Of a DNA stretch of 64,000 nucleotides, positions 1-39,600 are shown piece after piece. Positions within the stretch are counted from its first letter, which is position 1, and every line of letters begins with the position of its first letter. Below the pieces are notes generated by a model. The model saw only the letters and a program-made list of their open reading frames with translations. It had not been told where the DNA came from and did no database searches. Source of the DNA: Blasia pusilla (taxonomy: Eukaryota); NCBI GenBank assembly GCA_050084515.1, contig CM114271.1:29016001-29080000 (forward strand). Direction: 5' to 3'. Position numbers and translations under genes: made by a program.

Positions 1-2883
1 ACCCAACATGATGATGAGGGTAGAGAGTTTGTGGTGGCTTATGCTAGCCGCTCGAACAACGCTGCAGAGGCAAAGCACAGCTCGTATAAGGGTGAGTGTT
101 TGGCTGCGATGTGGGCTGTCGCGCATTTCAGGCGTTACTTATTCGGAAACCCCTTTACCATCATCACTGATCATCAACCACTGAAGTGGTTGATGGAGTC
201 CCACAAGCTCATAGGGAAGCTTGGGAGATGGGCTGTGTTGTTGCAGGAATATGATTTTCAGGTGGTACATAGACCTGGGACGCTCAACCAGGATGCAGAT
301 GGGTTGAGTCGTAACCCATGCCCGAGTCAGCGAGATGCGATTGGAGCTCGATGGCATGGAGAGAGTGATGAGGAGTCAGTGCCAGGATGGCATTCGTCAG
401 CCTATTTAGGCATGTTGGCTATGGAGAGCTAGAGTATGGAGACTTCGATGGCGAGGTCTAGTAGAGAGTCCTTGGATCCCGATGCCAGTGAGGAGACGAC
501 AGGTGGCCGAGATATTCATGATGATGGAGTAGTCTTGGAGTACCTTCGGACTAGCAGCGTTGCGAGCACCGTGGGTGCTAGAGAGCGGGATCGGATCCTA
601 CAGCGGGCCATACAGTTCCGTTGGGAGGGGACACATGTTTTGAGGGTTTGGGAGGATGGCAGAGTACGCGTAGTGCCACATCCTTCGTTGAGAGCACGAC
701 TAGTGCAGCATGCCCACGAGGAGTTGGGTCACTTTGGGGTGAAGCGGACGTATAGCTTGCTCCAGATTCAGTTTTGGTGGCGAGGCATGCAGACTGACGT
801 TCAGCAGTTTGTTTCCAAGTGCATGGTGTGTGATCGGGTCCGAGCATCGTTCAATGCTCCGACTCCACAGTTGCATCCATTACCGATCATGGGCTTAGGG
901 TATAGATGGAGTTTGGATTTTGCAGGACCTTTGCCTTTGACGGAGTGTCACAGTCGTTATGTGTTGGTGATGGTCGAGCACTTCTCGAAGTGGATCGAGT
1001 TGGTTGCATTGCTTGACAAAGCGAGTGAGGGAGTAGCTTATGCCTTCCTTGACAGAGTGCTGAGTCATTATGGCGCACCCGTTGAGGTGTTGACAGACCT
1101 AGGTACTGAGTTTCGCGGTGAGTTCCACGCCTTGTGTGATCACGAGCTCATCGACCATCTTACGACTTCGTGAGATCATCCCGAGGCGGATGGATTAGCG
1201 GAGACAGTTGTGCAGACGGTGAAGAAGGGTTTACGCAAGTATGGCTTGCAAAGAGGTCACCTAGGAGATTGGGACCTCCAGTTGCCCTGGTTGGCGATGG
1301 GATACAGATTCAGCAGGCAGGCATCCTTAGCGTGTTTTTCACCGTACTTGCTACTTTATGGCCGAGAGCCAGATTTACCTGCGGCCATTCGTCGAGATGT
1401 TGGTGAGGTGCTGGACCTTGATGACCTAGATGTATGGGTGCGAGCATGTTCTCAAAGGGCTGAGTTATTTCGGAGAGTGATGCCCATGGCGGTCTAGAAC
1501 TTGACGATTGCGCAACATGGGGATACGTTGAGGTATGCGACTATTCGAGGTGATGGTTATCGACCAACTATCCGAAGGTTTCATCAGGGAGATTATGTCT
1601 ACTTGCAGCAAACGGCACCAACGACGTTGGATGTGACTACAGGGCGCACTATCCTGAGAGTGCATGACGTTTTGCCATCCGGTGTTCTCTTGCTGGAGGG
1701 ACGCGATGGTATGGTATGGAAGGACCATATGTGTAATTTTGCACCATGTCACCTTCTTGACATTGATGGTACAGATCCAAGCTTAGCAGTAGTTCCTGCA
1801 TGCTTGCATTGTATGTTGTGTGGTTCTGCCCGTGGTGCGGCCACAATGCTAGTCTGTGATGGTTGTTCGAGAGGTTGGCATATGGCATGTCTGACGCCAC
1901 CTCTCACTAGGGTTCCTCCGGGACGATGGATGTGTCCCAGATGTACATAAAGGAGATACTAGGTAGGTTTTAATCCCGACTTTTTCTCTAATATGGATGA
2001 CAGGAAGGCGACTAACGATGGAGCCACATGAGCACCCGACCTTCTTGGTCTTAACATCCGAGAGATGTATGTCATGGTAGGTAGGGATAGATGGCTATCC
2101 GGAGTTAGAGGGACCTAACCACCAGCTAGGGGAGCGATTGGAGATATTTTGGTACTTCTTGTCTCGTTGTTTGGATGCCATGAGTTAGCATGGGATTGTG
2201 TGTGTGTTCGGTGACAGCGATGTGTATGCGCACGACAGTTATCACGTCCTTTAGGATAGATCAGTGAGATCTAGTAGAGCTTCTTCAAGAGCAGTGGAGG
2301 ACAGGCCTAGGAGGTCGAGGATGACCTGCTGAGGCCCCGAGAAACCTGAGAGAGCAGGTTTCCCTTTCGTTTTGGCTTATTTGGAGCCATATTGAGGAAC
2401 TTACTATTTTAGGTAAGTACCATATCGAGTATATGATCGACTTTATATTTTTGGTAAGTGGCCCTTGATCTCCTACATCAGGTCAAGAGCCAAGGAGGTG
2501 ACTTGGGAGAATAGGTTACCATGGAGAGGGCTTGGGAGAGGGGAGGGATATATATCCCAAGGAGAGAGAGCTTGAGAGCTCATTCTCTCTTTGTTGAACC
2601 TCTTGGCATGAGGCGGCGGAGCTATGGTCCCTTGCCTTATGAGTGTAACCCGAGCCTCTCATTAGGAGAGTGGGTTTGGTTTGACATGAGAGAGAGTGCA
2701 CACCTTTGAGAGCTATGGTGTGAGATGGTGTAGAGAGAAATTGGATCTTACTTTAATTGGAGATATTTTGGTACTTCTTGTCTCGTTGTTTGGATGCCAT
2801 AAGTTAGCATGGGATCGTGCGTGTTTGTGTGTATGTTCGGTGACAGCGATGTATGTTGTGTAGCGATGTGTATGCGCACGACA
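1..2883 (+). mobile_element. 3' part of a Ty3/Gypsy-type retrotransposon (RNase H, integrase, PHD finger) ending in split repeats B1-GT-A2-B2; degenerate
   Basis: RNase H (VAYASR..ECLAAMWAVAHFRRYL..TDHQPL), integrase HHCC (HAHEELGHFG..CMVC) and core (WSLDFAGP, LTDLGTEF), PHD CMLC..CDGC..WHMAC..CPRC. In-frame stops present. B1 2137-2237, GT 2238-2239, A2 2240-2755, B2 2756-2883 ending GCACGACA. Confidence 0.9.
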
Positions 2884-3160
2884 CGTCTTCCGAACATTGA
2901 CGGTACAGTTGATCCGAGCTTAGCAATAGTTCGTGCAGGCTTGCAGTGTATGTTGAGTGGTTCCGCCCGTGGTGCAGCCACTATGCTAGTCTGTGATGGA
3001 TGTTCGAGAGGATGGCATAGGGGATGTTTAACGCCACCGCTCACTAGGGTTCCTCAGGGACAATGGATGTGTCCTAGATGTTCATTGAGTAGGTAGTTCT
3101 ACATTCCGTCTTGTGTCTCTAACATGGATGACAAGAAGACGACTAACGATGGGCTCGTTC
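2884..3160 (+). mobile_element. Remnant PHD-finger/3' end of a related retrotransposon copy, into which the element ending at 2883 appears to have inserted
   Basis: Sequence resumes mid-domain (LPNIDGTVDPSLAIVRAGLQCMLSGSARGAATMLVCDGCSRGWH..CPRC), nearly the same as about 1750-1950, followed by the shared GACTAACGATGG motif. Confidence 0.75.
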
Positions 3161-8819: not shown

Positions 8820-9609
8820 TCAACAAGTTACACGATTGATAGTCTGAAACAAATATGACAAGAACACTAGTGGTTGGTCAGATGTGAACGGACGACGAGG
8901 CAAGCGACCCCCTACTACCTCCGCTCGACATATCAATGCCAAGGCTTGTGCACGTTGTGAGGCCATTGAGATGCACCGCCAAAAATAAGTAGTAACTATA
9001 GAGAAAGAAGGACCACATGAAGGGGCAAGGTGATGCTTCTCGAGGGAGTGGTGAGCACATGTTTCTAGGAAAGTATCAAAAGATACATGTAAATGACCAA
9101 ATACTTCCACTGCAAAAGGATTGAATCCATCAGTCGCATGTCTCACAACACAACTTAACTCCTTGATTCTTGCTGCAGCTTCGACCGCCGAACCTTTGGT
9201 ATGTGCGGCTCGACACACCAAATTAGAACGTGTGGGATCAGAAACCACCACATCACTTAGTGTCCAAAATTCACCTCTAGAAATAATAAGATCAACTCTC
9301 CAACAAGAGGTTTATTGTGTGGTCGAAGGTAGGACATGGAGCTTCTCTTGCCCAAAAGTGTACCTTGCAATACAAGCCACCGATGCTAACGCCTCTCTAA
9401 TCACATCATGTGTGGCCGTTCGTTCTCCACCATGTGCACATCGGAGAATATGGATACCTTTTGCATCAATGGAATCCTTGCATACACAATTTGGCACACC
9501 TAACATAGAAGGATGGGGAAGTCCAAGGTGTAACTGCAAAGCTATCGAGAATATACTTTGAGGAAGATAAAATGGAAGAATCAGAGGATTTTCAATAAGC
9601 CATGCCCCC
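8820..9609 (-). pseudogene. C-terminal part (zinc finger plus restriction-like endonuclease) of a CRE-like non-LTR retrotransposon, interrupted by the insertion at 9610-19476
   Basis: CVC..HILRC..G.ERTATHD zinc finger; VVVSDP..KE and FNPFAVEVFG RLE-type motifs. Joins 19477+ in frame (RSCACTGA|GAWL) when a 4-bp TSD is removed. Confidence 0.7.
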
Positions 9610-9978
9610 TGTCATGACCATACGGATTATGTCGTAGAGTATGGTGTGCTAGTAGAGGCCATTCCTTATGTAGGACCGTAGTGGATTGGTAGAGATGCGG
9701 TTCCATACATAGGGTTGGGGTTACTCGGTTGGGGTGACTTTCCCAAGAGGGGCCCGCTCTTAGGTTGGAGGATATAAGGTGGAGTGCACTCAAAGAACAG
9801 TCAGTTCTTTGAGTTGAGCCTCTTGCGTTGGGAGTTAGCCTTGGTAGTGAGTAGAGCTCTTGGCTATGGTGTTTCCCGCAAGCTTCGACCTAGATTCTCC
9901 CATCGTGGAGTGGGTTTGGCTCTCGATTATATGTGATTGTAAACGTGTTTTATGACAGTAGGTCTTTCACGGATTTCA
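9610..9978 (+). repeat. Terminal repeat A1 (369 bp), with a TATA-like GATATAAG at about 9771
   Basis: Near-identical to 19002-19370. Identity stops abruptly after GGATTTCA. No TGG-type tRNA PBS follows. Confidence 0.92.
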
Positions 9979-11689
9979 CTCAAAGAACTGGAGTAGATCG
10001 ATGGTAGCTTCGATTGTAGATCAGTAGGATCTGGTTAGGGCTGATTGTGTACTCAGCCGTGGATGTTCGGGGCTTGTTGCCTATGCTGGAGGTGTGAATC
10101 AGGTGCGTGGTTGGTTGGGAAAGAAGTGCCTTTTAGAGAGCTTTCCAACGCGCTGTAGATCGCCGGATTTCGTCAAGGGAGTTGGAAGTTATCAAGCATT
10201 GAAGATTCTGGTCGTGTTCGACAGTTTTCTGATGTGGAGAGCTTGGAGTGCGGAAGCTGTGTTGAAGTTCATCTAGATCGGGTGAGAGGTTCCTGTTGCT
10301 ACTCGTATTGTGATCTCCTGTGAATCTATCTGCTCGAGTGTGTGGAGCGTTGCGGATTTCTGCGTGCATGAAACTTGGCGGAAGCGCTGTCGGATTTGCG
10401 GTTCTAGAGGTGTATGGACAGCAAGTTTGTTTGATTTTTAGCTCGGAGTACAGAGCTCGGTTGTAGCTGATTTTTTGTGGAGAGATAGCTATGGTGGTCA
10501 ATTGAATTATGATCGAAACAGATTTGATTTCGGTCACGTATTTGTGAAATAATTTCTGATCGAAATTTCGCGGACTAGCTCGAGGTCTGGCTATGGTGGA
10601 CAGCGGATGGGAGGGGCTGGTTGGTTGGTGACTCGTTCATTTTTGGAGACGCCTATCCCGTTGGGGGCGCCCTGGTTGGACCTCTCTCCATAGCGAAGCA
10701 TGGCGAACGGGGCATGTCTCGAGCATTTCTCGAGGCCGAGGCCGAGGCGAGGCCGAGGCAACTCGTGGTAGCTCGGGGCGAGTGGGCGTGAGAGGCGGAG
10801 TAAGGAGCAAGCAAGCAAGCTTGCTTGCTTGGGCGTGAGGCAATTTTTGCAGGATTTGGGATTTGAGTTTTGCATAACTGGTCACCCATCTTTGGGCTAT
10901 TCTGCCTGGAGGACGCTTAACTGCCGAGTTCTTAACTATGCCAGTGTACAGACTGTTGTAGCTCATTTGGTGCTCTTCGGAGATGTGTTAGGCGCTTTAT
11001 GCATCTCAGGTTTTTGGTTGATGTACCTCTAGCGCATAGTACGGTGTAGCCTCTCCATGCAAGTGATATTTTCAGGTGCTGCGAGTTCGACTAGCACGTC
11101 ATCGACCCGCGGCGGAGTAGCTATTGCGTTAGAATTGTGTGGTGGGTTTTGTGGATTCAGGGGGCACCACGTTTGGTGGATTGTGTTACCTTGATTTCCA
11201 TTTGCGGTTGGAGGGTTGTCATTGGACTTCGTATGCGGATCCCCTCCATCGTGCTTCTTCTTGCTTGCGCCCATTGTTAGGGTTGACGCTGATTTCGAGT
11301 AGTGTTACTCTGTGTGCTACCGGTAGTGAGGGTGGAGTGATGACCGATGACCGTGGGAGGCTTCTTGTAGTGATGAGAGGTTAGATTGCCTACACCCATA
11401 GCTAGTAGAGCTACAATAGTAGAGCGACATCGACGTCACTTGGGTAATTTGGTGGTGGTGCGGCATCGGCGTTGGTCATCACAGAGATGTCGGGTGGTCT
11501 GGTTGGGGACCGTGGTGCGGACAGTGGTGGTTTCACACGGAGTGGATTTAGGTATCGGCTACCTTTTCCACTTCCGACGGTTGATTAAGAGGAGGACCAG
11601 GGTGTTCCAAACACCGAGTCTTCTACGTTCTTATCGAGTGTTGCAACTCCATTGATTTGGGACATGGACGGTGGATATGGGGCCATGAA

Positions 11690-14000
11690 GGGCCCACGAC
11701 GATACTCTAAAAATGGGCACCATTGAGTTGGAGGACTTCATGCAAGAGTTTGATACGTGGTGTGATATGCGGATGTTGGTGAACGCACGTTGTTTACACC
11801 CTTCTTGGCTTGGAAGGGGTTGTTTCAGCACTTGGAAGGACCACCCATGGATGATTACCATGAGTTTAGGAAGGACCATGTTGTTGAGATTGAGGCATGG
11901 AGACAATATTGGTCTCCAGGCTATGTGTCTATCACCCATGGTGGTATTGGTAGTAGTGCTCCTACTATGCCAGCCAGCCCGACGTTGAGTGGTACGAGCA
12001 CGAGCCGGGGGGGTACCGGTGGAGGTACTAGTGCCCCACCATCGTTCACCGGTTGCGAGAGTTCTTCAAGAGGTTGAAGAAGAACTATCGAGGAGTGAAG
12101 ACGGAGAAGTTGAGGAATCTTCAGGACTTTGAGCGAAAGACTCGGTGAGAGTCTTCGTGAGGCATACACTCGTATGCAACGCTTGATTTCGATTACCAGG
12201 GTGTGGCGAGGATCAGCGATCGATTTTGGTATGGGATCTTGACAGAGATTTGCGCCGTAGGGTGCGTGATGCTACTCTTATGAGTGATGATTCACCCACA
12301 TTGACCCATGTGTTTGCTTTATCTCAGAAGATTGAGCTTAACATGATGAAGGAGAGAGTGGTGACATCCGCATTCAAGAGGGGATACAACTACTACTTCT
12401 CGTGTTCGGCCGCCCACCTCACGATCTCGTAGTAGTGGTGGTGGTAGTAGTAGTGGGAGTCGTGGGGGTACACACGACCTCGTCAAGTCCTAGAGGGACA
12501 TTTGTGCAAAGACCATTGCCTTCATTTGCTGCCCCGCAGCAGGGCGATCATGTTGGACATGTGGAGGTGATCATGTTAGGAAGTTTTGTCCCCAAGAGGA
12601 TGGGAGACGGACTTTGGAGGATGGGCCTCAATCGGCCCCAACTCAGTGTGATCATTGCAGGAGACTAGGTCATCCACGAGAGCATTGCTTTGATCTTCAT
12701 CCAGAGTTGAGATCAGGCCGTGGCCGTGGTGGAGTAGCTCGAGAGGCCGAGGTGGTTGAGGTGGTAGGGGTGGTAGAGGTGGACCGGTGGTTGGAGAGCC
12801 TACGGTGGCTACCCCTACCCACTACTGACAGAGTCGACTATGGTCGCCATGATTGAGCAGATTGGGAGCGAAGTTGGCTACTATGGTGGTATCCGGGATA
12901 GATCGAGTTCGGGAGCAGGGCTTCCACCTCTTATGGAGGGATGATCTCTCTTATATGGCGAAAAGACAAAGTTGAGGCATCGGTGCGATTTAGAGGAGCC
13001 ACTCGAGCGTCGAGCCACGTGGTGCTCTTCAGGAGTTGGACCCACAGAGGGGTGAGGCCGAGGCAGGCTAGGCTTCCCAGTCATTCTTGTTGTCGAGGTG
13101 CTTAGGACTCCATCCATGGTTCCTCACGCAGCCTATTGAGCGGCAGTGGGGACCGAGGCATCTACATCGAGTGTAGTAGACACGGATGCAAAGCATCCAA
13201 TGCGATGTGCGGATGGCAACCCGGTGTTGGGATCCCCATTGTTTTCGCCACGAGTCGATGGCTTTAGGAGTTGACTTAGCTCTGTATTTCAGTAGCGACC
13301 ACGTTGTGTGAACGTGGAGGTGTTTCTTGCTACACGTGTTGAAGTGGATGAGGGTGTTGCGGTGGAGCGACCCTCTATGTCGGGAGTAGCATTGAGTACG
13401 GTGCTACTTGGCAAAAGCGGCGGCGAAGATGGATGCATTACCAGCCCGGCTAGCCATTGATCGTGAGAGGCTTACACCTGGTGTATGTATGTTGGACAAC
13501 CGGAGTGGGATCTTCCGATTGGTGAGTCCTACAGGACATGTGTATAGACCAGATAGAGTCTTGTTAGACTCTGGTGCCCAACCTTTGATGTTGGGAAAGG
13601 CGGCATGTATTGGTTTGGGTATTCGAAGGTCAGAGCTTGAGCCTTGCCCATTCTAGATTCAAACATCACTTGGAGGAGCCAATGATAGGTTATATATATC
13701 ATTATATTCGAACTCTACTCTGAAAATATTTCGATTAGATGTAAATGATTTCAAACTTGCCCCGCTTGACATCAAAGCAAGGGAGCTTTATCAAGAGGCA
13801 GTGAATGCCCTCAATTCATGACACGGGAGAAGTTTTCTGTACAGTTGAGACTAGATCATGCGACTGATAGCTCCCGGTTGGGAGTATCTGCGGTAGTCAC
13901 ATCAGCCGAGTCGTATGATGTACTAGTTGGAGGAGCAGTATTGTACCCGATGGGTTTTCAGATGGATTATCGGATCGGAGACAGCGTCTTCTGAGACCTG
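11690..14000 (+). pseudogene. Gag (zinc knuckles) and aspartic protease of the retrotransposon
   Basis: CWTCGGDH..C and CDHCRRLGHPREHC knuckles; VLLDSGAQP protease active site at about 13560; YDVLVGGAVL downstream. Multiple frameshifts and an AT-rich insertion at about 13690-13810. Confidence 0.75.
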
Positions 14001-14409
14001 GTTGGCAGTCCGGGGATGGACGTATGAGCCAAGTTCCTGTGAGATTTATTTCTGGGGCTCGACCAGGAGGGTCTTCCCCAACAGTGTTAGCATTTGTGGC
14101 TGGTTTTAGTGGAGTAGTCATTTGGCCCGGAGACTTTTTGGAGGGTAATGTTTCTGCTATGGATTCTCCTGCGCATGAGGAGGTAGAGGAGGTCCCTATT
14201 TTTGCAGCAGTGGCATCCTCATCGTTGGATGTGCCACTTTGGAGTTCAGGCGGTGCACTACCGCAGGAGGCTGATCGCCTAGTGCATGAGGCTTGGTGTG
14301 AGGCTGTTATACCTCACGAGGAAGAGGAGTCCCTACGGCGGACTCCTACTTTTGGTCCAGCTGGGTTATCCCCTTTGGATACTACACCCATTGTATGGCA
14401 GTATCCGCC

Positions 14410-15360
14410 GGAGGGTATTTGTGTGTTAGATCTCTTTGGTGGGATTAGCACTGGTTTGGATGCAGTGTTGCAGGCCGGTATTCCTCTGCGGAGATACGTG
14501 TATGTGGAGCGAGATGAGACGGCCCAGAGAGTCTCATCTCGACATATTGGTCAGTTGATGCGGAGATACCCAAAGTTGTTGCCGCCATCAGCTATTCGTG
14601 GATACCAGCGTGCTTTACCATCACACATTGCATTGTTGAGCGCGGGACCTTGAGAGGGTTGGTCCTGTGGATTTGGTGATTCTTTGGATGGCCATGTCGG
14701 TCATACACGTCTTTGGTCGTGGTGAGGGATTACATGACCCTAGGTCTCGATTGTTTTGGGAGATGTTACGGGTGTTACAACATCTTGAGTTCATCGAGCA
14801 CGTGCTCTAGCTTACATTCGGAGAATGTTCCATTGTTGGGTGACACTCGGACCCGGATGATGGCGAGTGTTCATGAGGTGCGGTCTTGGATTGGACGGTG
14901 GTGTTGGATGCGTGGCGAGTTGGCTCGCGTGCACATAAATCCACGCTTGTGGTGGACAAACTTGTTGCCTAGGGAGGTTCTCGTCGAGCATATGATGCAA
15001 AGGTAACGGGATCCTCGCCTTACGGTGGATAGTATCTTGATCTTTGGCGACTTTCTCAAGTGGTGAGGGTTATTGATCGGTCACCCATGGCGGTGGTGAA
15101 CCGTGTGGGGCGACCTAGGATGGCACTACCCACATTTGTGAGTTTTCCTCGTCACATGCCTCTGAGGAAGGTGGTCAGGGCTTGTATGGGATTCTCATGT
15201 GCGGCGGTTGGTGGAGCCTAACGCTGATGAGAGAGAGCGTGCGATGGGATTCGCTATTGGTGTGACAGCGGTTGCTTCTATTTTACGAGGCTTCACGACG
15301 TCATGTGTTGGGTCAGGCCATGGACCTGGAATTGTTTGACTTGGATTTTGAGTCTTGGTA
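14410..15360 (+). pseudogene. C5 cytosine DNA methyltransferase domain (DNMT3-like) embedded in the retrotransposon pol
   Basis: Motifs in canonical order across frames: I VLDLFGGIS, II YVERD, IV GWPC (about 14686), V GLHDPRSRLF, VI ENVP (14821), VIII PRLWWTNL, IX ERERAMGF, X RRHVLGQAM. Confidence 0.85.
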
Positions 15361-15769
15361 TGGCGGAGCAGCGTCGACTTCGGACTATGTCTGTGGGTCT
15401 TCCACCCTTGTAATGAGCTCGATGGCTACCGGGACGGTAGAGGCATCGGTCAGGCGAGGAGAGTAGTATTTTGCATCCTTGGAGTAAATGGGATGTAATG
15501 GTGGGCATGTGGAGTTGGTTGCTCATCTTTGGTGGCGGAGTTATTTGCTCGGATGATGGTGTAGCTAAGGGTGTACCATCTTGTGAGGGGGTTGCGAGCA
15601 GACCAATGGCATCGTCCTCTCCCTCTAGTGTGCGGTGGAGGAGGAGACTTGGGAGCTATTACTTGGGCCCAAGCTTACGGGAGGTGAGAAACGACGCTGA
15701 CACGCGGTTCCTACGTGCTTATAGGAGTTGTTTTGCCTTTAGCATGAAGGAGTTGGGTTCTCTGGTTGG

Positions 15770-17080
15770 ACCGGTGATATGGATTGATTTGGCTAGTGAT
15801 ACGCCAATCTTCCGTCGTCCCTACCGATATAGTGATATGGAGAGGGACTTGATTGAGTAGGGCGTTGGACCTTTTGGAGGCTGGATTAGTGGAGTTGTCG
15901 CATGGAGAGTATGCATCGCCACTTTGTCATGCTCGCTAAAAGGATATGCGTGGCAACTTCACGGATAGGCGGATGTGTGGAGATTACCGTCCTATCAATC
16001 GGCAAACCAAGGCCGATAGGTATGCCATGCCTACACACGAGAGATCTTTGATGTGGTGGGACAGGCAAAGATTTTCAGTACTTTGGATCTTCGGGCAGGA
16101 TACCATCAATTGCCGATTCGGGAGAGTGACAAGGCCAAGACAGCATTTTGGGGTGTCAACTCTCATGGCAAGGATTGTTTGTACCAATGGAAATTCTTAC
16201 CCTTTGGGTTGAAGAATGCACCTTCCGAGTTTCAAAGAGTGATGGACAGGATCCTAGCAGGGCTGGATTTTGTTCGGTGTTACATTGATGATATCTTGGT
16301 GTTCAATAACACGGTGGAGGAGCATCAGATACATTTGCAGATGGTGTTTGAGCGGTTGAAAGCTCATGGTCTACGTTTGCATCTAGGAAAGTGTAAGTTC
16401 TTCCATGAGGATGTTGAGTACTTGGGTCATGTGATCTATCCAGGTGGTTTGGGAGTTCAGCAAGCAAAGGTGGAGGCTATTGCACTTATTCCGCGTCCGG
16501 TAGATGTGAGTAGAGTTCGAGCATTCATGGGATTGGCGAACTACTATCAGAGGTATGTGAAGGGATTTAGTGCTATGGCAAAGCCTTTGAACCAATTGCT
16601 GAAATCAGATCAAGAGTGGCACTGGGAGATGATCGAGGAGAGAGCTTTTGTGGAGCTTAAGGCCTAGTTGGTGGCGGCGCCTATCTTGAGGAGACCTATC
16701 AGAGGGCGCCCATTTCAATTACACATTGATTGGAGTAGGTTGGGACTTGGAGCGGTGTTGACACAACATGATGATGAGCACATGGAGTTTGTGGTGGCCT
16801 ATGCAAGTCGTTCGAATAATGCAAATGAGTCGCGCTATAGTTCATATGAGGGAGATTGCTTGGCGAGAGTGTGGTGTGGCACACTTTAGGTGTTACTTGT
16901 TTGGCACACAGTTTACCCTTGTTCTGATCACCGGCCGCTCAAGTGGTTGATGGAGTCGGACAAGCTTACAGGGAAGCTTGCACGGTGGGCTCTTATCTTA
17001 CGGGAGTATGACTTCCAGGTTGTACATAGACCTGGAGTTGCCAACCTTGATCTTTGATGGGTTGAGTAGGAACCCATGTA
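15770..17080 (+). pseudogene. Reverse transcriptase and RNase H (Ty3/Gypsy type)
   Basis: RMCGDYRPIN, LDLRAGYHQ, KTAF, LPFGLKNAPSEFQ, YIDDIL, YLGH, VVAYASR. Confidence 0.92.
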
Positions 17081-17439
17081 CTAGCCAAGAGGATACAACG
17101 GGGCTAGATGGCATGGCGAGGTTGATGAGGAGATGGTGCCAGGTTGGCATGCATCCGCCTTTTTATGTTGGTTAGGGGTGGACTCTAGTATGGAGGACCA
17201 CATGATATCTTACTCTAGTCAGAGGGTAGATGGCCAGCCTTCAGATCCTAAGGTTGGAGATGGTGGTACGGATCAGCGTGATATTCATGATGATGCGTTG
17301 GTGTTGGAGTTCCTTCGGACCGGTAGGGTGCCAAGCATAGTGAGTGCCAAGGAGCGAGACCGTGTTCTTCAACGTGCTAAGAGGTATCGATTGGAGGGAA
17401 CACATATTCTCCGCGTGTGGGAGGATGGTAGAGTATGAG

Positions 17440-18720
17440 TAGTGCCACATTTGGCTCAGAGAGAGCGCATTGTGCGACATGCCCATGAGGAGTTGGGACA
17501 TTTTGGGATAAAGCGTACGTATAGCTTACTCCTTGGCCAGTATTGGTGGCGTGGCATGCATACTCAGGTGCAGCAGTTGGTGTCACGTTGTATGGTTTGT
17601 GACCGGGTGAGGGCATCATTTAATGCCCCTACACCACAATTACACCCCTTGCCTATTATGGGGTTGGGTTACCGTTGGAGTGTGGACTTTGCGGGACCGT
17701 TACCGTTGACTGTACGACATCATCGATATGTGTTGGTGATGGTGGAGCACTTCTCCAAGTGGATTGAGTTGGTGGCATTACCGGACAAGGCAAGTGAGGG
17801 AACGGCGTATGCATTTCTGGATAGAGTGCTTAGTCATTTTGGTGCACCAGCTGAAATCTTGACCGACCGAGTCTGAGTTTGGGTGAGTTTCAGGTCTTAT
17901 GTGACAAGGCGTTGATTGATCATCGGACCACGTCTCGAGATCATCCAGAGGCGGATGGTTTGGCTGAGCGTGTGGTTCGAGGCGGTGAAGAGGGCATTGC
18001 GCAAGTATGGCCTCTGAAGGGCATCTTGAGACAGGATATTCGGTTGCCATGGTTAGCCATGGGGTATAGGTTCGATCGCCAAGCATCCTTGGCTTCCTTC
18101 TCACCTTATTTTTACATTATCGGCCGAGATCCAAACTTGCCATCAGCAATTCGTCGAGTCTAGTGAGGTGGTGAACCTTGATGACCCGAGAGATGTGGAT
18201 GAGGGTGTGTTCTCGCGAGCGGAGCTCTTTCGGAGAGTTATGCCAATGACCTTTGAGAATCTTGCCATTGCTCAACACAGGGATACGTTGCGGTATGCAA
18301 CCATTCGGGGTGGAGGTTATCGACCATCGATTCGTAGGTTCCATGTGGGGGACTATGTCTATTTGCAGCAGATTGCCCCGACAACGTTGGATGTGACGGC
18401 AGCCGCACTATTTTACGAAGTGCGTGAGGTGTTAGCTTCCGGAGTTCTCATGTTGGAGGGTCGTGATGGAGTTGTTTGGAAGGACCATGTGCGTAATTGT
18501 GCGCCATGTCATCTTCCAAATGTGGATGGTACTGTTGACCCAAGCTTAGCCATGATACGTGCTAGCTTGAGGTGCATGTTGTGTGGGTCTGCTTGTAACG
18601 CAGCCTGACCCCGTATGTTGGTGTGTGATCGGTGTTCTAGGGGTTGGCACATGATGTGTTTGACTCCACGTTTGGATGTTGTTCCTCTTTGGAAGGTGGG
18701 TTTGTCCTCGATGTACTTAG
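17440..18720 (+). pseudogene. DDE integrase with C-terminal PHD finger
   Basis: HAHEELGHFG..CMVC zinc-binding domain; WSVDFAGP, EILTD, ADGLAER core; C-terminal CMLC..CDRC..WHMMC PHD at about 18570-18716. No tyrosine-recombinase ORF was seen. Confidence 0.9.
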
Positions 18721-18893
18721 GAGAGGTAGATGACTTGATCTTTGCATGATATGGATTACTGGATGTGCGACTAACGATGGGGCAACCTAGCACCCGGCCT
18801 TCGATTCGAGCACCCAAGAAGGTGTATAGCATGTAGTAGATGTATAGGGCTACCTGGGAGTTAGAGGACCTAACCGCTTGATTAGGGGGTCGA

Positions 18894-19476
18894 GTTGTGG
18901 TACACTTGCGTTTGTGGATACTCTCGTCTATGTTATGTATGTATGTGCGTATGGTATGTCAGCGATGTATGTTGTATGACGATGTGGATTCGCACGACAG
19001 TTGTCATGACCATACGGGATTATGTCGTAGAGTATGGTGTGCTAGTAGAGGCCATTCCTTATGTAGGACCGTAGTGGATTGGTAGAGATGCGGTTCCATA
19101 CATAGGGTTGGGGGTTACTCAGTTGGGGGTGACTTTCCCAGTAGGGCCCGCTCTTAGGTTGGAGGATATAAGGTGGAGTGCACTCAAAGAACAGTCAGTT
19201 CTTTGAGTTGAGCCTCTTGTGTTGGGAGTTAGCCTTGGTAGTGAGTAGAGCTCTTGGCTATGGTGTTTCCCGCAAGCTTCGACCTAGATTCTCCCATCGT
19301 GAAGTGGGTTTGGCTCGATTGTATGTGATTGTAAACGTGTTTTATGACACTAGGTCTTTCACGGATTTCAGTTGTGGTACACTTGCGTTTGTGGATACTC
19401 TCGTCTATGTTATGTATGTATATGCGTATGGTATGTCAGCGATGTATGTTGTATGACGATGTGGATTCGCACGACA
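18894..19476 (+). repeat. 3' terminal block: B1 (18894-18999), GT, A2 (19002-19370), B2 (19371-19476)
   Basis: B1 and B2 are 106-bp near-identical direct repeats. Junction reads CACGACA-GT-TGTCATG. Confidence 0.92.
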
Positions 19477-21170
19477 CCCCGCTCCGGTACACGCACATGA
19501 ACGCATAAGAGTTTGATGAGCGTCAAAGGATGCTTTCAAGAGAATGATGGAAAAGTTGATTTGGTGCAAATTCTCAAAGATATGCTCTTGAAGTCGATCA
19601 AGCCCTTTTGTAATCAATTGACTGAAAGAGGGGTAGAATTGCTTATGTAGCAAGAGGAAGAAGAGCTCTGGTTGATCTCAGTTGTTGATTAAATAAAAAG
19701 TCCCCCTCCTCTACATAGGCGACATGATCCATCAAGATGGGTGTATCTCTTTGGAGAAACCTTGAAGCCATAATCGGTGGTACCAAGGCCCAACTCCCCA
19801 AAAAAGCTGATGGAGCATATGCAACTGTGGAGGAAAGTCCCACCCGTCCAAAAGAAATAGGCAAGATAGCTTGTCGTGAAGCTAAGATATCATCCTCTCC
19901 CTTCAATGTATTCGGGCCAAGAAGTTGACCAAAAGTTGCCAAAATAGAAGCGTCAAAAGAGTTCAACCGATGTAAGAACCTTGAAGTGGGAGTCAAGTGC
20001 AAAAAAGGTAGGAAGGACGTCGTAGAAAATATTGGGAGAGAATCCCATAAGCCACTTGGGGATCCCCTAAATGAGGTAACAAATGAAGCCATTCCAGGTC
20101 TTTCAAAAGGGCCTCATCCAAGAATTTCGAGATATATCGGTGAAGCCAATTGGGACCCCAAGAACCCTAACCCCTAAAATGCAGATGAGAAAATCAAGAG
20201 CAGTCAGGGTGAATGTTGAGGGAAGTCATGAAGGAGACCATACTCCACATTTAGTAGGTTGGACTTTAAGGTTTAAGAAAGAGAGTTGCTCCACAAAATA
20301 GATATAAGCAGGAACCACTTCAAAAGGAGGAGCTATAATATGAGTGTCATCAGCAATAGAAGAGAAAAGACCAGATCGAAATGCTTGCGTTAATGCTCGA
20401 AAGGCACAAAATTAAATGGGCAATGGCAAAGAGTGGGTCATCCATGGGATCACGTTGACGCGTGCCACAAGCCGATTGAAGAATTCTATATTCCTAGAAG
20501 TAGCATGATGAGAATAGATAATGGGCGTATCATGGGCATAAGAGGAGCAAAAAATGGAATGAGACTTGCGAGTTGTCCTCTTGCACAACATAACTCCTCA
20601 AACATGGCCTCACGAGAAACTGAATTGAATTCGTTAGCCACATCGACTGGAATTGCTACCCACTCTCGGTGAATATCAAGAGTGGAGCGAATCCCATACC
20701 ACACCTCACAACCACCAAGAGTTGCCACTCCAAATTGATGAGGAAATAAGTGGGCACTAAAATGAGGATGAAATTGCAAGCACGGGGATCGACTAACCAA
20801 GCGGTATAAAACCTCTCCAATAGCCAAACGTGAGACACGTGAAGGAGGCTTATCCATAGCCAAAAAATGACAAGCCCCTAAGAGCCTAGGGATAGAGAAT
20901 GGGAGACGACTTGCCGCAATATCTGCACACACCTTATATAGTGAGACAAAGCCACTTCATGAATCTGCCTGGATAAAGCAATTGTGGAGATGCTCAAAAA
21001 CCATCCCTAATAGCCCGCTTGCTGATAAGTGAGGAGAATGAAGAAAAGCCCTTGTGAAAACCTCCAAGTCAAGCTCCATTGTATAGTCTTCCACAAAAGG
21101 TGATGCATTACCACTTGAAGGAAGGTGAAGAGCTTCTAAGAGAGCCACTGTGTCCGCACTTGGAACCGCC
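19477..21170 (-). pseudogene. RT-containing part of the CRE-like non-LTR retrotransposon
   Basis: RLAIGEVLYRL, PHQFGVATLGGCE, PVDVANEFNSVSRE, IADDTHI, RQAILPISFGRVGL, AFLGSW motifs on the minus strand, with stops and frameshifts. Confidence 0.75.
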
Positions 21171-23921: not shown

Positions 23922-26128
23922 TGTCACATCTTATTTCGACGTAGGTAGAGTTCTATCGCGTCGACGGCATAGGGAGTCATCGGGCTGTTCCGATGTAACT
24001 TTGTCCCGAGATGTCGGATGAGGTTGGCGACAGGTGTGTTATGTCAGGAACGTCGTTTATGGCGATTTTCCTATTTTGGTTTTAGTCTGTCAGGTGAACC
24101 GTTGACCGAGTCAACGGTCATCCGGTAACTTATGCACGTAGGTTATCGTTGGTACGGCTATTTTTGGGGAAAGAGCCTTTTGGCTCTTCCCAAGGGTATA
24201 AGAGTGAGGAAGATGGCTTTCTCAAGCCATCTTTCTCATGTTGAGCCTTAGGAGCGCCTCTCTTGCATAGACGTGTGTGGGTGTGTAGGAGTTAGGGTGC
24301 TAGTGTCCGGATTCCCTCATGGTAGAGGATGGATGTGGTTTGATATGCCGATGTAGATTCATGAGTGGATTTTTAGGCCGGGTGAGCCATTTTTACTACT
24401 CTTGAGTACTCTAGGAGGAGACGGCTTCTTATAAGCCAGGGTGGCGATCATGGACATGTGAGCCATCTACGAGTGTTGTTTGCACGGAGTAGTGGTGGTT
24501 GACCACGTGAGGATACGGTGACAATGCTGGCAGCATTCACAAGTACATGCGGAGGACATTCATGTAGCGGATAGTCCCACGGAGAGATATGTCAGGGTGG
24601 GTGTCTCTTCCCATGGTGCAGAGCTTCGTTATTGTTGTTGGGGATGAGCGTGGAGTGCAGACAAGCTTGTGAGGCAAGCGTGGAGCCGTGTCTATGTTTG
24701 GAGGAGGGTACGAGAGTGTTAGATCTCTTTGAAGGGATCAACACAGTTTTGTGTGTAACAGTGTTGCGGAGATGACGGCACTGATGGTGCTAGATATATA
24801 TAGGATAGGAGATCATGTCGGGGACATATGTGTGTGCTATCTGGAGTTAGGGGGACCCAACTGCCAACTAGGGGGGTGGTTGTGGGATCCCTTTCATGGT
24901 TGCAAAAAAATGAACAAGTCCTTCCTTAGGACGGACAAGTCCATGGACATGGGTTCCATGAGGTGGGACCCACACTTGTACTCCATGATGGAAGGTGAGG
25001 CAAGGATGAGTGGATTAATAAGGGAGGAGGTAGTGGAGTTAGAGGGAGGAAGAAACTGGGGATTATGGAACACGAAGGCAAGTAAGGGGACGGAGAAAGA
25101 AGGGAAATGTGGAGCCCATATGGACAAGTCCTTCCATAGGATGGACATAAGTCCACGAACACAAACTTTTTCCATATGCGATCTTGGTCCCTTTGTATAT
25201 GCGACGTACACAAGTTACCGGGCGATCGTTGACTTGGTCAATGGTTCATGTGCCAAACTAAAACTAACATAGGAAAATGGCCATAAACGACATTCCCGAC
25301 ACAATAGACATATCGCCAACCTCATCTGGTATCTCGGAATAAAGTTACACCCAAACAACCCGCTAACTCTCTATGTCGTCAACGTGATAGAACTCTACCT
25401 ACGTCAAAATAAGATGGCCCAGACCTGAGAGTAGCTAGTGTGACGTCAGCCTCCACATCTTACCACGATGCTAGTTTATGTGTGGATCTACCCGTATGTT
25501 GGGAAAGATTGGTGTTGTGTGGTGTGTAGATGTGACAAGTGATGTGGGTTTTGTAGCGATATGTATGCGCACAATAATTTTCATATCTTATTTTGAGGTA
25601 GGTAGAGTTCTATCGCGTCGTCGATGGCATAGAGAGTTAGTAAGTTGTTTGGGTGTAACTTCTTCTCGAGATGTCGGATGAGGTTGATGACAGTTATGTT
25701 GTGTCGGAAACGTTGTTTATGGAAAATTCCCTATTTTGGTTTTAGTCCGGTAACCTGATCACGCAGGTTACCGTTGGTAGGGCTATTTTTGGGGAAAGAG
25801 CAAGGAAGATAGCTTTCCCAAGCCATCTTTCTCATGTTGAGCCTTAGGAGCGCCTCTCTTGCATAGACCTGTGTGGGCGTGTAGGAGATAGGATGTTAGC
25901 ATCCGGATTCCCTCATAGTGGAGGGTGGATGTGGTTCGATATGCCGATGTAGATTCATGAGTGGAGTTTTAAGTCAAGTGAGCCATTTTTACTACTCTTG
26001 ATTTTGTTGTGGGGTCTCGATGTATATGCGTAATTTTATTTTGTTTATGTGTGGATCTACGCGTACGTTGGGGTAGATTAATGTTGTGTGATGTGTAGAT
26101 ATGACTAGCGATGTGTATGCGGATGACA
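23922..26128 (+). mobile_element. Non-autonomous split-repeat retroelement: A1 23922-24405; B1 about 24889-25576 (interrupted); A2 25579-26001; B2 26002-26128
   Basis: Starts TGTCACATC, ends GATGACA. TSD GCCT/ACCT; removing 4 bp restores the Copia zinc-knuckle sequence seen uninterrupted at about 55430-55480. No pol motifs inside. Confidence 0.8.
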
Positions 26129-27949: not shown

Positions 27950-30900
27950 ATCCATCACAACCGCGGACAATATGCTAGTGAATCCACATTCGATGCATCC
28001 AAAAACAGCGTTGACTCCTCACAATAAACCAAGGTGAATCCCGTTGGGTACAATGTTGCTCCACTAACTAAGATATGATACGTTTTGGCATCGACTACTA
28101 TGAACTCATTTGTCAGATGTCTTGGTTGAATCTTCAACACGACCTTATGTTGGGTTATAAACTACGTTGTACTCACTCCACCAAGGAGGTATGGATCCTA
28201 AATGGGCAACGCTCCACATTGGTCTTTGTCACATCCAATCCAGTAAATACCACCTTACCCAACATCAAGGGTTGCGCTCTTAAATCCAATAAGACATATT
28301 GTAGAAAAAACACTCTACAACCTAGACTAAAAAAAATGGAAGATCTCTCCACGGTTATGTAGCAAAACAATACTCGACGACACCTTTGGAAAACTCTATC
28401 ATTGGCGTAGCGAGCATCTTTGCCATTCTAGCAATTGTAACTTGCCATGACTTTGAGGTGGACATTTCGAGTATAGGCTCTAAGGGAGCTTCCACCACCT
28501 CCTCTACAACTGCCTCTGAATACGAGGCAATAACACCATCTCCATCCTTTCATAACAGATCGGCCGACCTGAACATCTTAGTGGGCAAATGTCTCAATAT
28601 CACAACATTGGAAGCCAAAACCACAAGATACTATAAATGATAGTGGTTGCCCTGAAAATAATACTCAACATGAGCTCTTCTTAAGCATTAGCAATAGGAG
28701 TCTTTGCACTTGCTTCTCCCATTGCTTGTCGTGCTTACACATGAACGACACTCGACTTGCGAGAACTCTAATTAAGACCCGTCAATGGAATTCTCATCAC
28801 CTCGAAGATTGTAAAGGACTAAGAAAGCTTCGTCTATTTCCTAGCCTCCCCCATATGTGGATCCAACTTCACGACTGTTTCACGTGGAATGACATCGAAA
28901 ACCTCGATCTATATAGCCCTGCATATCCTCCTTTTCACATCTTATTTCGACGTAGGTAGAGTTCTATCGCATCGACGGCATAGAGATTCACCGGGTTGTT
29001 CTGGTGTAACTTCGTCCCGAGATGTCGGATGAAGTTGGCGATAGGTGTGTTGAGTCGGGAACCTCGTTTATGGCGATTTTCCTATTTTGGTTTTAGTCTG
29101 TCAGGTGAACCGTTGACAGAGTCAACGGTCATCCGATAACCTATGCACGTAGGTTACGGTTGGTAGGGCTATTTTTGGGAGAAGAGCCTTTTGGCTCTTC
29201 CCAAGGGTATAAGAGTGAGGAAGATGGCTTTCCCAAGCCATCTTTCTCATGTTGAGCCTTAGGAGCGCCTCTCTTGCATAGACGTGTGTGGGTGTGTAGG
29301 AGTTAGGGTGCTAGTGTCCGGATTCCCTCATAGTAGAGGGTGGATGTGGTTTGATATGCCGATGTAGATTCATGAGTGAAGTTTTAGGCTGGGTGAGTCA
29401 TTTTTACTACTCTTGATTATTGTTATGGGATCCTAGTGTATATACGTGAGTATGTTCATTTATGTGTGGATCTACCCGTATGTTGGGGGAGATCGGAGTC
29501 GTGTGGTGTGTAGATGTGACCAGCGATGTGGGTTGTGTAGCAATATGTATGCGCACGACATCCTAGATATCCTTGTGCATATCCAACCAAGATCCTCCAT
29601 TTCCTTGGGTGCTCCATATGAGGTCGATGCCACCAAGGTTGCACATGGACAAAGTCCGTTGTCGTGTCGAGAATCTTTCTTCGAGCAAGGGCGGGCCTTC
29701 TAGCTGCGGTAGATGCGGTCGATGCAAGGTGAACTCTCTAATAAGTTCTCCTTTTTCAATACAAAATTATGATGTACACTCTCCATTCTCTCACGACAGG
29801 TATCACAAATGGAAGTGCCGAGGCGATAACTTCTTCGTAACATCGGATCCCGAAATTCCTGACTATAAAATCCCTATAAACTATTTTACGTTTGTACACG
29901 AGAAAGATAGCACAACTAGTGTTAAACCCTACTTGATCAGGCCTATTGACATCCATGGATCGCTATATAAGGACATACAAAGTACAATCCCATGTCCTTC
30001 CATATGTGACGATAGGAAGAATCACCGAAGTTGGAGATTGCATGACCTGGTTCATGAACGCCTCCCCAAAGTGATAAACTAAATAGCGAGTGAACCAGTG
30101 CCTATCTACAAAGAGTACCTTGACATGGTAAGGATTGAGAAAGGAAAGTCGGGCATAGCTCGTGCTCCACCCCTATCCATGCTTGACAGACATTCTCTAC
30201 TCTCCTCAAGAATGGGTTTGGCGGAGTTATTCTCCCAAGGGGTAATCCACTCTCATTGGGAAAGTAACAAGCCAAAACATCCGCTATTTTAGTATGACTA
30301 AACTCCTCTCGGTGACAAACCTCTCATCCCCCCACACACACACACCACACTCTAGAAACCTCTCGAAGAATAGACCATGATCAAGTTACTCTCCCAAGAG
30401 GGGTGATCCACTCTCATTGGAAGAACAAGCAATCCCAAAGCCATACACTCAAGAGAGACACTAGAGACTCAAGATGTGGAATAGAAGGTGATGAACCCTT
30501 GAAGGTCCCTCCTCTTTATATACTCACAAGGGATCCACAAGAGTACGAAATAGAGCTTATCTTATCTTGTGCCACATGGCTTCCTCTCAAGGCTTAGCCA
30601 ATCACATTTTGACACAAGTAGATTTCCTCTTATCTCTTCAAAAATATCCTCTTTTACCCACATGATATTTTCCAAATTACCCCAACTAACCTAGCCACCA
30701 ACCAAGACTACTTTTACTTTTCATTAAAGCAACTACTTTACTTTTATAAAGTCATCTTTTATTTATTACCTCATTTTCTTAAAGTTGGGCCCGCATAAAA
30801 GAGACACCATAAAGAGGTTTAAACATAAGAATCTCCCTTTTCTAAGCCAATTTACTTAATACTAATGAAACTCTATCTAACACTTAATGACGAAGGAGTT

Positions 30901-38159: not shown

Positions 38160-38444
38160 ACTCAAATGGAATTGTCATATGTAGCCCATTTGTTTCTTGG
38201 TATGCAAAATTATGATATTTGTTCATGTTGGAATGCAAAGTATGTTCTCAATGACGTATTAATGTTCATAAACCAAATGGACCAAACCATTCCCGGTTCA
38301 AGAACAAACAGGCTTGGAGTGACGCCTATTCTCCATGACTGCTAATCACAGGCCGAGAGCTAAATCACCAAACGCCTTTCCTCGCTCTTTCTGAGGCTTT
38401 TTTTTGTTTAACTCCCTTCCCTCCCTCTCCTCACTTCTCCGATC

Positions 38445-39230
38445 AAGCCCGGCGGCTATTCTCTGGACGGCTGCTATTTACAGGCCCGGCGGCTATTCTC
38501 GGGATGGCTGCTATTGACAGGCCCGGCGGCTATTGTCGGCACGGCTGCTATTCATAGGCCCGGCGGCTATTCTCGGGACGGCGGCTATTCACAGGCCCGA
38601 CGGCTATTTTCTAGGTAATTTGCTATTCACAGCAGCGGCTATTCTGGAATATTTGCTAATCACGATCCCGGCTAATCACAAATGGCGGCTATTTTCTGGA
38701 CGGCGGCTAATCACAGGCCGGCGGCTATTTTCAGGATGGCTGCTAATCACAGTCCGGCGACTATTCTCTGGACGACGGCTAATCACAGGCCGACGGCTAT
38801 TCTCTAGACTGCTGCTAATCACAGTCCGGCTATTCTCTGGACGGCGACTAATCACAGGCCGACGGCTATTTTCAGGACAGCTGCTAATCACAGTCCGGCG
38901 GCTATTCTCTAGACGGCGGCTAATCACAAATGGCGGCTAATCACAGGCCGGCGGCTATTTTCAGGACAGCTGCTTATCACAGTCCGGCGGCTATTCTCTG
39001 GACGGAGGCTAATCACAGGCCGGCGGCTATTCTCTAGACGGCTACTAATCACAGTCCGGCTATTCTCTGGACGGCGGCTAATCACAGGCCGGCGGCTAAT
39101 CACAGGCCGGCGGCTATTCTCTGGTCGGCGGTTAATCACAAATGGTGGCTATTTTCTGGACGGCTGCTAATCACAGTCCGGCGGCTAATCACAGGCCGGC
39201 GGCTATTCTCAGGACAGCGGCTAATCACAC
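38445..39230 (+). repeat. Minisatellite of about 18-20-bp units with core GGCGGCTAWT, downstream of the transposase
   Basis: Alternating CCGGCGGCTATTCTCTGGA / CGGCGGCTAATCACAGG units. Confidence 0.95.
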
Positions 39231-39600
39231 CCTCCCTCTCCTTCCATTTTATTTTCTTCTACACCCTCCCTCTCCTCCCTTCATGTTTCCTCCATTCCCT
39301 GCTTAATTTTTCCCTTCCCTTCCTTAATTTTCCTCCCTCTTCTTCATTTTTTTTCCTCTCCTCCCTTCATTTCTCCTCCATTCCTAGTTTTTCCTCCCTC
39401 TTCTTCAACTTTTTTCCTCTCCTCTATTCCTTCACTAATCTTAACCCCTTCAAATTTTTTCCTCTCCTCCCTTCATGTTTCCTCCATTCCCTACTTTATT
39501 TTTCCCTTCCCTTCCTTATTTTTCCTCCCTTCATGTTTTCTCCATTCCCTCCTTTATTTTTCCTCCCTCTTCTTCATTTTTTTTCCTCTCCTCCCTTCCT
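39230..39600 (+). repeat. Pyrimidine-rich imperfect tandem repeat
   Basis: Repeated CCTCCCTTCATGTTTCCTCCATTCCCT and TTTTTCCTCTCCTCCC. Confidence 0.85.

Follow-up and report, generated by a model that had tools for sequence, protein, structure and literature searches.

The stretch of DNA considered here comprises 64,000 nucleotides of Blasia pusilla (assembly GCA_050084515.1, contig CM114271.1, positions 29,016,001 to 29,080,000 of the forward strand) and is referred to as the window, with positions counted from its first letter. The window contains a degenerate Ty3/Gypsy (Metaviridae) retrotransposon, here called element 1, whose direct repeats are split between its two ends. Self-comparison and direct reading of the window gave the order TSD(CCCC)-A1-internal-B1-GT-A2-B2-TSD(CCCC), where TSD stands for target-site duplication and A and B are the two repeated segments:

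9606..9609, no strand: left TSD CCCC, equal to 19477-19480 (direct reading)
9610..9978, plus strand: A1, starting with TGTCATG, with a promoter-like part and the predicted R region (96.5% identical to A2; repeat families D1, D3 and D4)
18894..18999, plus strand: B1, GT-rich, ending in GCACGACA (99% identical to B2)
19000..19001, plus strand: junction dinucleotide GT, which is GC in other copies (direct reading; the T at 19001 is C in sequencing runs X1, X3 and X6)
19002..19370, plus strand: A2 (repeat comparison with A1)
19371..19476, plus strand: B2, the right end of the element, ending in CACGACA (repeat comparison and direct reading)
19477..19480, no strand: right TSD CCCC (direct reading)

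A1 (9610-9978) and A2 (19002-19370) are 96.5% identical over 372 aligned columns, while B1 (18893/4-18999) and B2 (19370/1-19476) share 99% identity over 107. On direct reading, the left flank runs ...gccatgCCCC/TGTCATGACC (CCCC/TGTCATG), the internal joint ...TCGCACGACA-GT-TGTCATGACC (CACGACA-GT-TGTCATG) and the right end ...TCGCACGACA/CCCCgctcc (CACGACA/CCCC). The TG..CA termini (TGTCATG...CACGACA) and the 4-bp TSD are those of a Ty3/Gypsy element, for which a TSD of 4-6 bp is expected. Two complete, identical long terminal repeats (LTRs), as expected at the ends of such an element, are not present: the 5' end consists of A only, with no B after A1, and the 3' end of B-NN-A-B, in which NN is the junction dinucleotide. 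The order A1 ... B1-A2-B2 is that of the split direct repeats of the PAT/Ngaro/DIRS elements. This layout, with its coordinates, 4-bp TSD, TG..CA ends and end-to-end internal junction, had been proposed in an initial annotation of the window, and it was confirmed by repeat comparison and direct reading. A second junction was absent from that annotation: A ends in ..TTTCA and B starts with GTTGTGG, so that the A2/B2 junction likewise reads CA-GT-TG. For the 8-mer GCACGACA, 7 occurrences were counted in the window where 0.97 would be expected, and for the degenerate junction pattern CRYRAYARYTRTCAY two where 0.03 would be; the latter was also found in 17 of 80 related loci.

In-silico excision of element 1 together with one TSD copy restored a 164-codon minus-strand open frame across the empty site (window 9315-9609 joined to 19481-19677), which fits a clean insertion of element 1. 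Further long minus-strand frames lie next to it, at 8820-9311 and 19643-20113. Pfam assigned no family to the minus-strand frames around the insertion site, which may belong to an older, unclassified element or to a gene disrupted by element 1. The copy itself is dead, with 113-171 stops per frame. Strong strand asymmetry was seen over element 1 (window 10001-20000; GC skew +0.20 to +0.27, AT skew down to -0.21), and genomic copies of its family differ mostly by transitions; the two observations fit heavy C-to-T decay of a methylated repeat. Four sequencing runs, all available as contigs and none recorded as RNA, were compared with element 1. Runs X1 and X3 contain the family in extreme abundance (window 9400-19700): 242,797 contigs of X1 matched at a likeness of at least 90%, and summed depths reached the tens of thousands.

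Pfam identified RVT_1, RNase H, Integrase_H2C2 and rve domains in the internal region, in the pol order that is typical of Ty3/Gypsy elements, namely reverse transcriptase, RNase H and an integrase with an HHCC zinc domain and a DDE core. The coding remnants are as follows:

12494..12853, plus strand: gag-like frame with two CX2CX4HX4C zinc knuckles (motifs in the translation; no Pfam match)
13396..13653, plus strand: aspartic protease remnant with the motif LLDSGAQ (in the translation, and also in homologues P0121 and P0134; no Pfam match)
14405..15336, plus strand: broken DNMT3-like cytosine methyltransferase with DLFGGIS, GWPC and ENV spread over three frames (motifs I, IV and VI in the translation)
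16020..16664, plus strand: reverse transcriptase (RVT_1, E 5e-31)
16668..17054, plus strand: RNase H, in two frames split by a stop (RT_RNaseH_2, E 4e-17; RT_RNaseH, E 3e-6)
17439..17873, plus strand: integrase, HHCC zinc domain and DDE core (Integrase_H2C2, E 3e-17; rve, E 2e-9)
18573..18710, plus strand, approximate coordinates: remnant of a PHD finger that closes pol (placed by its similarity to window 1810-1944, which matches PHD with E 6e-12)

As the initial annotation had stated, a DDE integrase is present and no recombinase was seen: the 20 plus-strand frames that were scanned, which excluded shorter frames and the minus strand, gave no Phage_integrase match to a tyrosine recombinase. 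The PAT/Ngaro/DIRS elements are defined by a tyrosine recombinase and the lack of a DDE integrase, the reverse of what was found here. Moreover, such tyrosine-recombinase retroelements are not known to produce a TSD, whereas the element 1 family has 4-bp TSDs.

Pfam returned no match or sub-threshold matches for the gag, protease and methyltransferase frames of element 1 and of metagenome copies, and a phmmer search of PDB with frame 14680-15003 gave no match. The methylase region showed weak PDB matches to DRM and DNMT3A (E 0.037-0.8), and frame 13919-14650 has Marchantia homologues at 62-66% identity. PF00145 was detected in 19 of the 28 longer homologues of the methylase frame, with P0134 additionally carrying RVT_1 and RNase H, and the nearest cellular matches of the methylase are fish DNMT3-type proteins. 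For the gag-like frame, the Marchantia homologue P0121 is labelled a CCHC-type domain protein by its source. The Marchantia homologue proteins have the order gag(CCHC)-protease-DNMT-reverse transcriptase-RNase H-integrase. A related element in the window (element 2, see below) encodes an integrase whose closest matches are Marchantia polymorpha, Calypogeia fissa and Sphagnum fallax proteins, along with many from metagenomes, and its C-terminus is a PHD finger (E 6e-12). The PHD finger and the DNMT3-like methylase of element 1 are therefore assigned by homology to these relatives. Element 1 is a degenerate copy of a bryophyte Ty3/Gypsy lineage with the order gag, protease, DNMT3-like methylase, reverse transcriptase, RNase H, HHCC/DDE integrase and PHD. 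Five uninterrupted polyproteins of 1,800-2,200 amino acids (P0152, P0155, P0156, P0160 and P0168) were observed on metagenome contigs of 7-20 kb. They combine RVT_1, RNase H, DNA_methylase, integrase and PHD, with a DNMT only 35-40% identical to the Marchantia copies, and point to relatives that are more distant and possibly intact. A scan of viral contigs found no relatives.

A Gypsy element with this combination has been described before. KnitGypsy-Dnmt3 of Klebsormidium nitens is shown in the legend of Fig. 4c of de Mendoza et al. 2018 (PMC5890265) with repeats arranged as in DIRS (A-coding-B-A-B) and Gypsy-like domains, and a 2026 preprint names the group 'streptophytes (Gypsy-DNMT3)' (10.64898/2026.05.21.726589). 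The element 1 family resembles KnitGypsy-Dnmt3 in having a DNMT3-related C5 methyltransferase inside a Gypsy-type pol, broken in element 1 and carried by its homologues, and DIRS-like A-coding-B-A-B repeats together with Gypsy domains. It differs in its hosts, which are bryophytes, the named relatives being from Marchantia, Calypogeia and Sphagnum; the two are likened by layout and domains, and no Klebsormidium sequence was among the matches in the integrase and methylase homology searches. The layout as such is consequently not new, a possibility that the initial annotation had itself raised. The main-text parts of PMC5890265 on this element give no TSD, primer-binding site, polypurine tract, junction sequence or mechanism, though its supplement may hold more, and nothing further was found in passages of the REXdb survey (PMC6317226). 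Literature searches on split repeats, PHD- or DNMT-bearing Gypsy elements, self-priming and circular forms found no description of a mechanism.

The same layout recurs in two more families in the window and in at least four families among 80 metagenome loci, which were collected by integrase alignment and onto which the A and B of a reference copy, L010, were mapped. The other copies in the window are:

1..2883, plus strand: element 2, 3' half, related, 73% nucleotide identity in pol (polypurine tract 2126-2134, B1' 2137-2237, GT 2238-2239, A2' 2240-2755, B2' 2756-2883)
23922..26128, plus strand: third family, internally deleted, same layout (A1'' 23922-24405, polypurine tract 24866-24880, AT 25577-25578, A2'' 25579-26001, B2'' 26002-26128)
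28933..29560, plus strand: solo A-B of the third family (perfect TCCT duplication at the flanks)

In the third-family element at 23922-26128, B1'' is interrupted and ends at 25576, and the flanks are GCCT and ACCT. Within the foreign sequence inside B1'' (24890-25460), the first part of A is present in inverted form over 220 nt (25197-25416, 82% complementary to 23927-24146). Directly after element 2 lies a 269-bp fragment of the pol C-terminus of another copy (2884-3152, LPNIDGTVDPS... through the PHD region), which is 87-92% identical to element 2's 1774-2021; element 2 appears to be nested in this third, truncated copy. Tandem arrays unrelated to element 1 are found further downstream, at 33897-34660 (units of ~63 bp), 38444-39250 (18 and 37 bp, CGGCTAATCACAGG-type) and 39231-39600 (CT-rich, ~60 bp).

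Among the metagenome loci, B-A-B follows pol at 15 loci of the main family, representing 11 distinct insertions, and in other families at L053, L064/L065 and L069; at L059 and L063 the junction alone is visible. Junction-like matches at L019 were rejected, being tandem repeats beside TTAGGG-like arrays and not split-repeat architecture. The full-length copies L010, L029, L047 and L074 have an A1 without B. Perfect 4-bp TSDs flank the first three of these (AAGG, TCTC and AATC), the A1 start of L074 being damaged, and also L013, L014, L032 and L054, as they do element 1 (CCCC) and the solo copy (TCCT).

These copies bear on a first alternative, which is that element 1 is a canonical Gypsy element with full A+B LTRs that has lost its 5' B by deletion, or a tandem or assembly artefact of a single copy. 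That element 1 is old and broken, with its many stops in each frame, and that the solo A-B at 28933-29560 resembles an ordinary solo LTR, would suit this explanation. The layout is, however, present in three window families and in independent metagenome contigs of several families, and a PBS-like sequence (PBS, primer-binding site; see below) adjoins A and not B. No copy out of 16 has A-B followed by a PBS. The initial annotation had named a full A+B 5' LTR followed by a PBS in most copies as the pattern that would speak against its proposal; a B before or after the PBS-proximal A was found at 0 of 14 distinct metagenome 5' ends and at 0 of 2 in the window. Finally, the B1/A2 joint is bridged by a 506-nt contig in run X6, the length of which equals one B-NN-A period plus ~29 nt. 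It may represent a cycle in the assembly graph, produced either by tandem B-A-B or by circular DNA. The copies examined refute the canonical alternative, to which we give next to no credence. The split layout is a lineage trait and not the product of a damaged copy, in agreement with the view of the initial annotation that it characterizes a lineage.

Sequences resembling the priming sites of reverse transcription were located relative to A and B:

9772..9778, plus strand: TATA-like box (ATATAAG), ~30 nt upstream of the predicted RNA start (direct reading)
9802..9814, plus strand: CAGTTCTTTGAGT, at which the genomic RNA is predicted to begin, complementary to the PBS (13-nt perfect complement; the start is placed by the TATA-like box)
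9978..9990, plus strand: self-priming PBS-like sequence ACTCAAAGAACTG, adjoining the end of A1 (complement to 9802-9814; conserved in metagenome relatives)
18880..18889, plus strand: polypurine-tract-like GATTAGGGGG, 4 nt upstream of B1 (direct reading)

As the initial annotation had noted, no tRNA-type PBS follows A1; tRNA and Rfam scans of the window gave no match and so supplied no host tRNA for comparison. Instead, the family of element 1 looks self-primed in a Tf1-type arrangement, with a predicted RNA 5' end. In 9 of 16 copies tested, the sequence at the A1 end has a perfect complement of 10-14 nt in A, each time at the same site, and a paired change was seen between ..ACTG/CAGT.. in element 1 and ..ACTAT/ATAGT.. 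in L010 and L009. The PBS-A pairing closes the predicted RNA folds, and in the relative L013 a TATAAA lies 31 nt upstream of the PBS partner segment. As in the Tf1/sushi-type elements and the moss Tcn1 clade (PMC6317226), a tRNA PBS is lacking, and the bases next to the repeat would pair with about the first 12 nt of the predicted RNA; those elements, however, have two complete LTRs and a chromodomain, whereas the element 1 family has permuted repeats and a PHD C-terminus. The conserved box TGG(G)AGTAG, situated 1-10 nt past the self-PBS, was considered as the primer site and rejected: A2 ends before the box, so that the box cannot define the repeat boundary. On the other side of the internal region, a polypurine tract (PPT) motif CTAGGGGGG is kept 2-4 nt before B1 in six families.

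The position of these sites defines an LTR that differs from the integrated end repeat. The PBS-like sequence adjoining A implies that the right boundary of the reverse-transcription LTR is the end of A, and the PPT directly before B1 implies that its left boundary is the start of B. By the ordinary rules, the LTR of the cDNA is then B-NN-A, and only with this LTR does the rule hold that a PBS follows the 5' LTR and a PPT precedes the 3' LTR. The integrated A-PBS-internal-PPT-B-NN-A-B is a circular permutation of LTR-internal-LTR. This means that the initial annotation, which spoke of split repeats instead of LTRs, was right about the integrated ends, but that an LTR does exist in the form used by reverse transcription. 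It is our guess that B2 acts as a GU-rich downstream polyadenylation element, the absence of which after A1 would prevent premature 3' end formation.

Within this LTR, the conserved ends ..GCACGACA and TGTCAYR.. meet at the B/A joint, separated by a dinucleotide that varies between copies (GC, AC, AT or GT) and is always GC or a transition from it; in L010 the joint is a perfect 16-nt palindrome. Since the dinucleotide is GC or one transition away from GC, the B/A junction is shown to be an ancestral palindrome, ACA-GC-TGT, that carries both integrase ends. The A2/B2 joint, on the other hand, consists of the predicted right terminus followed by the predicted left terminus (..TTTTC + AGTTGTGG..). 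In 2 of 12 distinct copies (L006 and L028/L029) it contains 1-2 extra PPT-proximal bases, as expected if plus-strand start sites vary and the A2/B2 joint is made anew in each cycle. The fixed pattern of split repeats suggests that the integrase joins the element to the host at the repeat-internal palindrome and not at the repeat ends.

We consider it possible, and only somewhat short of probable, that the integrase cuts the B/A palindrome in end-joined cDNA resembling a 2-LTR circle. Transcription would start in A1 and end in A2, and self-primed reverse transcription as in Tf1 would then yield a cDNA with the LTR B-NN-A at both ends. The termini of this cDNA, the end of A and the start of B, would be joined as in a 2-LTR circle. 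The integrase would subsequently act on the palindrome of the PBS-proximal LTR, cutting it behind each CA and leaving 3'-recessed ends with 2-nt 5' overhangs; cuts at these positions of ACA-GC-TGT give recessed 3' ends that equal the normal processed integrase substrate. Insertion by the integrase of the permuted molecule A-...-B-NN-A-B would complete the cycle. If a 1-LTR circle were cut, or both inner sites of linear cDNA, the result would be a shorter, dead-end form, A-internal-B. More tentatively, the lineage may have moved its attachment site from the LTR termini to the LTR-internal palindrome, and hence integrate end-joined circular cDNA. The initial annotation had proposed that both ends are regenerated from the internal junction. 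Its likening of the B/A joint to a circle junction stands, but the process is better put as integration at an LTR-internal palindrome.

Parallels to this scheme exist in other systems. In the IS3, IS30 and IS911 circle or (IS)2 junctions, inverted ends abut across a 2-3-bp spacer and form the reactive substrate of the DDE enzyme. The resemblance lies in the abutted ends around a short spacer, those bacterial elements being DNA elements without reverse transcription. The prototype foamy virus (PFV) integrase cleaves palindromic LTR-LTR junctions of 2-LTR circles (PMC1180852), and the integrase of human immunodeficiency virus type 1 (HIV-1) does likewise (PMC1905944, PMC4372172). Here too, a DDE integrase would cut an end-to-end palindrome in circular cDNA and release integration-competent ends. 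In the retroviruses, however, the junction consists of the LTR termini and its cleavage is a side path, whereas here the palindrome is LTR-internal and apparently the sole site used. With PAT, Ngaro and TOC (PMC4157794) element 1 shares the repeat order A1-internal-B1-A2-B2, and the circle implied for those elements (internal-B-A-B-A) is topologically the 2-LTR circle of an LTR B-A. It is set apart from them by the HHCC/DDE integrase, TG..CA ends and 4-bp TSDs, with no tyrosine recombinase in the frames scanned.

The shorter form A-internal-B is frequent among the metagenome contigs. In the main family, 21 loci (20 of them distinct) have just one B at the 3' end, beyond which the flank is unrelated, and seven short-form loci have both ends visible (A-PBS-internal-PPT-B). 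Their TSDs are perfect in 4 of 7 cases (TGTT, TACA, ATTA and TGTG), match at 3 of 4 bases in two loci and mismatch in one. The short form is probably real. A 1-LTR circle, or linear cDNA cut at its inner sites, would produce it, but B1/B2 recombination or an assembly that collapses the B loop would do so equally well. The claim that the integrase also inserts 1-LTR-circle-like molecules is challenged by a second alternative, in which the long form alone is inserted; the short form and the solo A-B would arise later, by B1/B2 or A1/A2 recombination, or the short form would be a collapse of short-read assembly. Recombination within an element preserves the TSD, as seen in the short-form copies. 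In a tree of the region from integrase to PPT the two forms are interspersed (9 label changes, compared with 10.2-10.3 in shuffles), and all three elements in the window, which derives from a genome assembly, are of the long form. In addition, L006 (1-2713) and L007 (38-2750) are 99.4% identical through pol and most of B and then diverge inside B, L006 continuing into A2-B2 and one flank and L007 running straight into a different flank; this pair is either a chimeric assembly inside the repeat or represents two forms of near-identical copies. Other data fit this alternative less well. The terminal branches of short-form copies (~0.05-0.15) are like those of long-form copies (0.04-0.09), bar one outlier each (L070, short, 0.28; L047, long, 0.57), and long-form copies of such an age show differences of 4-10% between B1 and B2, which makes k-mer collapse less likely. 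Moreover, 20 distinct short against 11 long 3' ends in one family would be a high conversion for a 113-bp repeat. Insertion of the long form alone seems to us unlikely.

Several points weigh against cutting of the palindrome in end-joined cDNA. The cDNA forms, the RNA start and the RNA end are all deduced from contig sequence. All copies are degenerate, and 6 of the 16 tested lack a perfect complement of at least 8 nt to support self-priming; one more has no match but one of 8 nt at a different place. Families differ in the way A ends (TTTCA, TTTAA and CTTGA), a terminal CA not being conserved among them, and the short form may be an assembly collapse. Most importantly, a 2-LTR circle contains two identical palindromes, and a cut at the PPT-proximal one would give A-B-NN-A-PBS-internal-PPT-B. 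None of the 14 loci with a visible 5' end, and neither of the 2 in the window, has that form, whereas the other permutation is represented by the four full-length metagenome copies and by two in the window. The model leaves this asymmetry unexplained, and this is its main weakness.

The asymmetry is accounted for by a third alternative that does without a circle, in which the reverse transcriptase itself builds a linear cDNA ending in A...B and the integrase acts at or near its termini. This might happen by an extra plus-strand end-to-end template switch, from the end of A to the start of B, or by a completion of the ends on the internal B1-A2 junction in the style of PAT and Ngaro. Being deterministic, such a route would explain that only A1...B1-NN-A2-B2 was found and the alternative permutation in 0 of 16 cases. 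The A1-B1-A2-B2 architecture equals the split direct repeat of PAT and Ngaro (PMC4157794), and linear single-stranded cDNA intermediates have been reported for DIRS-1 (PMC7192593). Nevertheless, the PPT lies before B and not before A, so that the left end would still need a cut ~110 nt inside the cDNA. There is also no purine-rich primer site at the B/A joint, the predicted RNA has no B template downstream of A, and a palindrome with both ends around a 2-nt spacer would have no role. We regard a route without a circle as unlikely, albeit worth keeping in mind.

Although split direct repeats count as a hallmark of retroelements with a tyrosine recombinase, they are combined here with a DDE integrase, clean 4-bp TSDs and a putative self-priming site. 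Annotation pipelines should model a single family with three forms, namely A-internal-B-NN-A-B, A-internal-B and solo A-B. Use of the LTR-internal palindrome in joined cDNA would, if true, account for the fact that a bryophyte family of very high copy number is missed or mis-annotated by LTR finders. It would make this the first retroelement with circular cDNA as its obligatory integration substrate, and the long-discarded idea of circles as precursors would hold for a natural lineage. The lineage would then represent a surviving intermediate stage, with canonical LTR elements on one side and the PAT/Ngaro/DIRS elements with their split repeats on the other, and the origin of the architecture of the latter would become testable.

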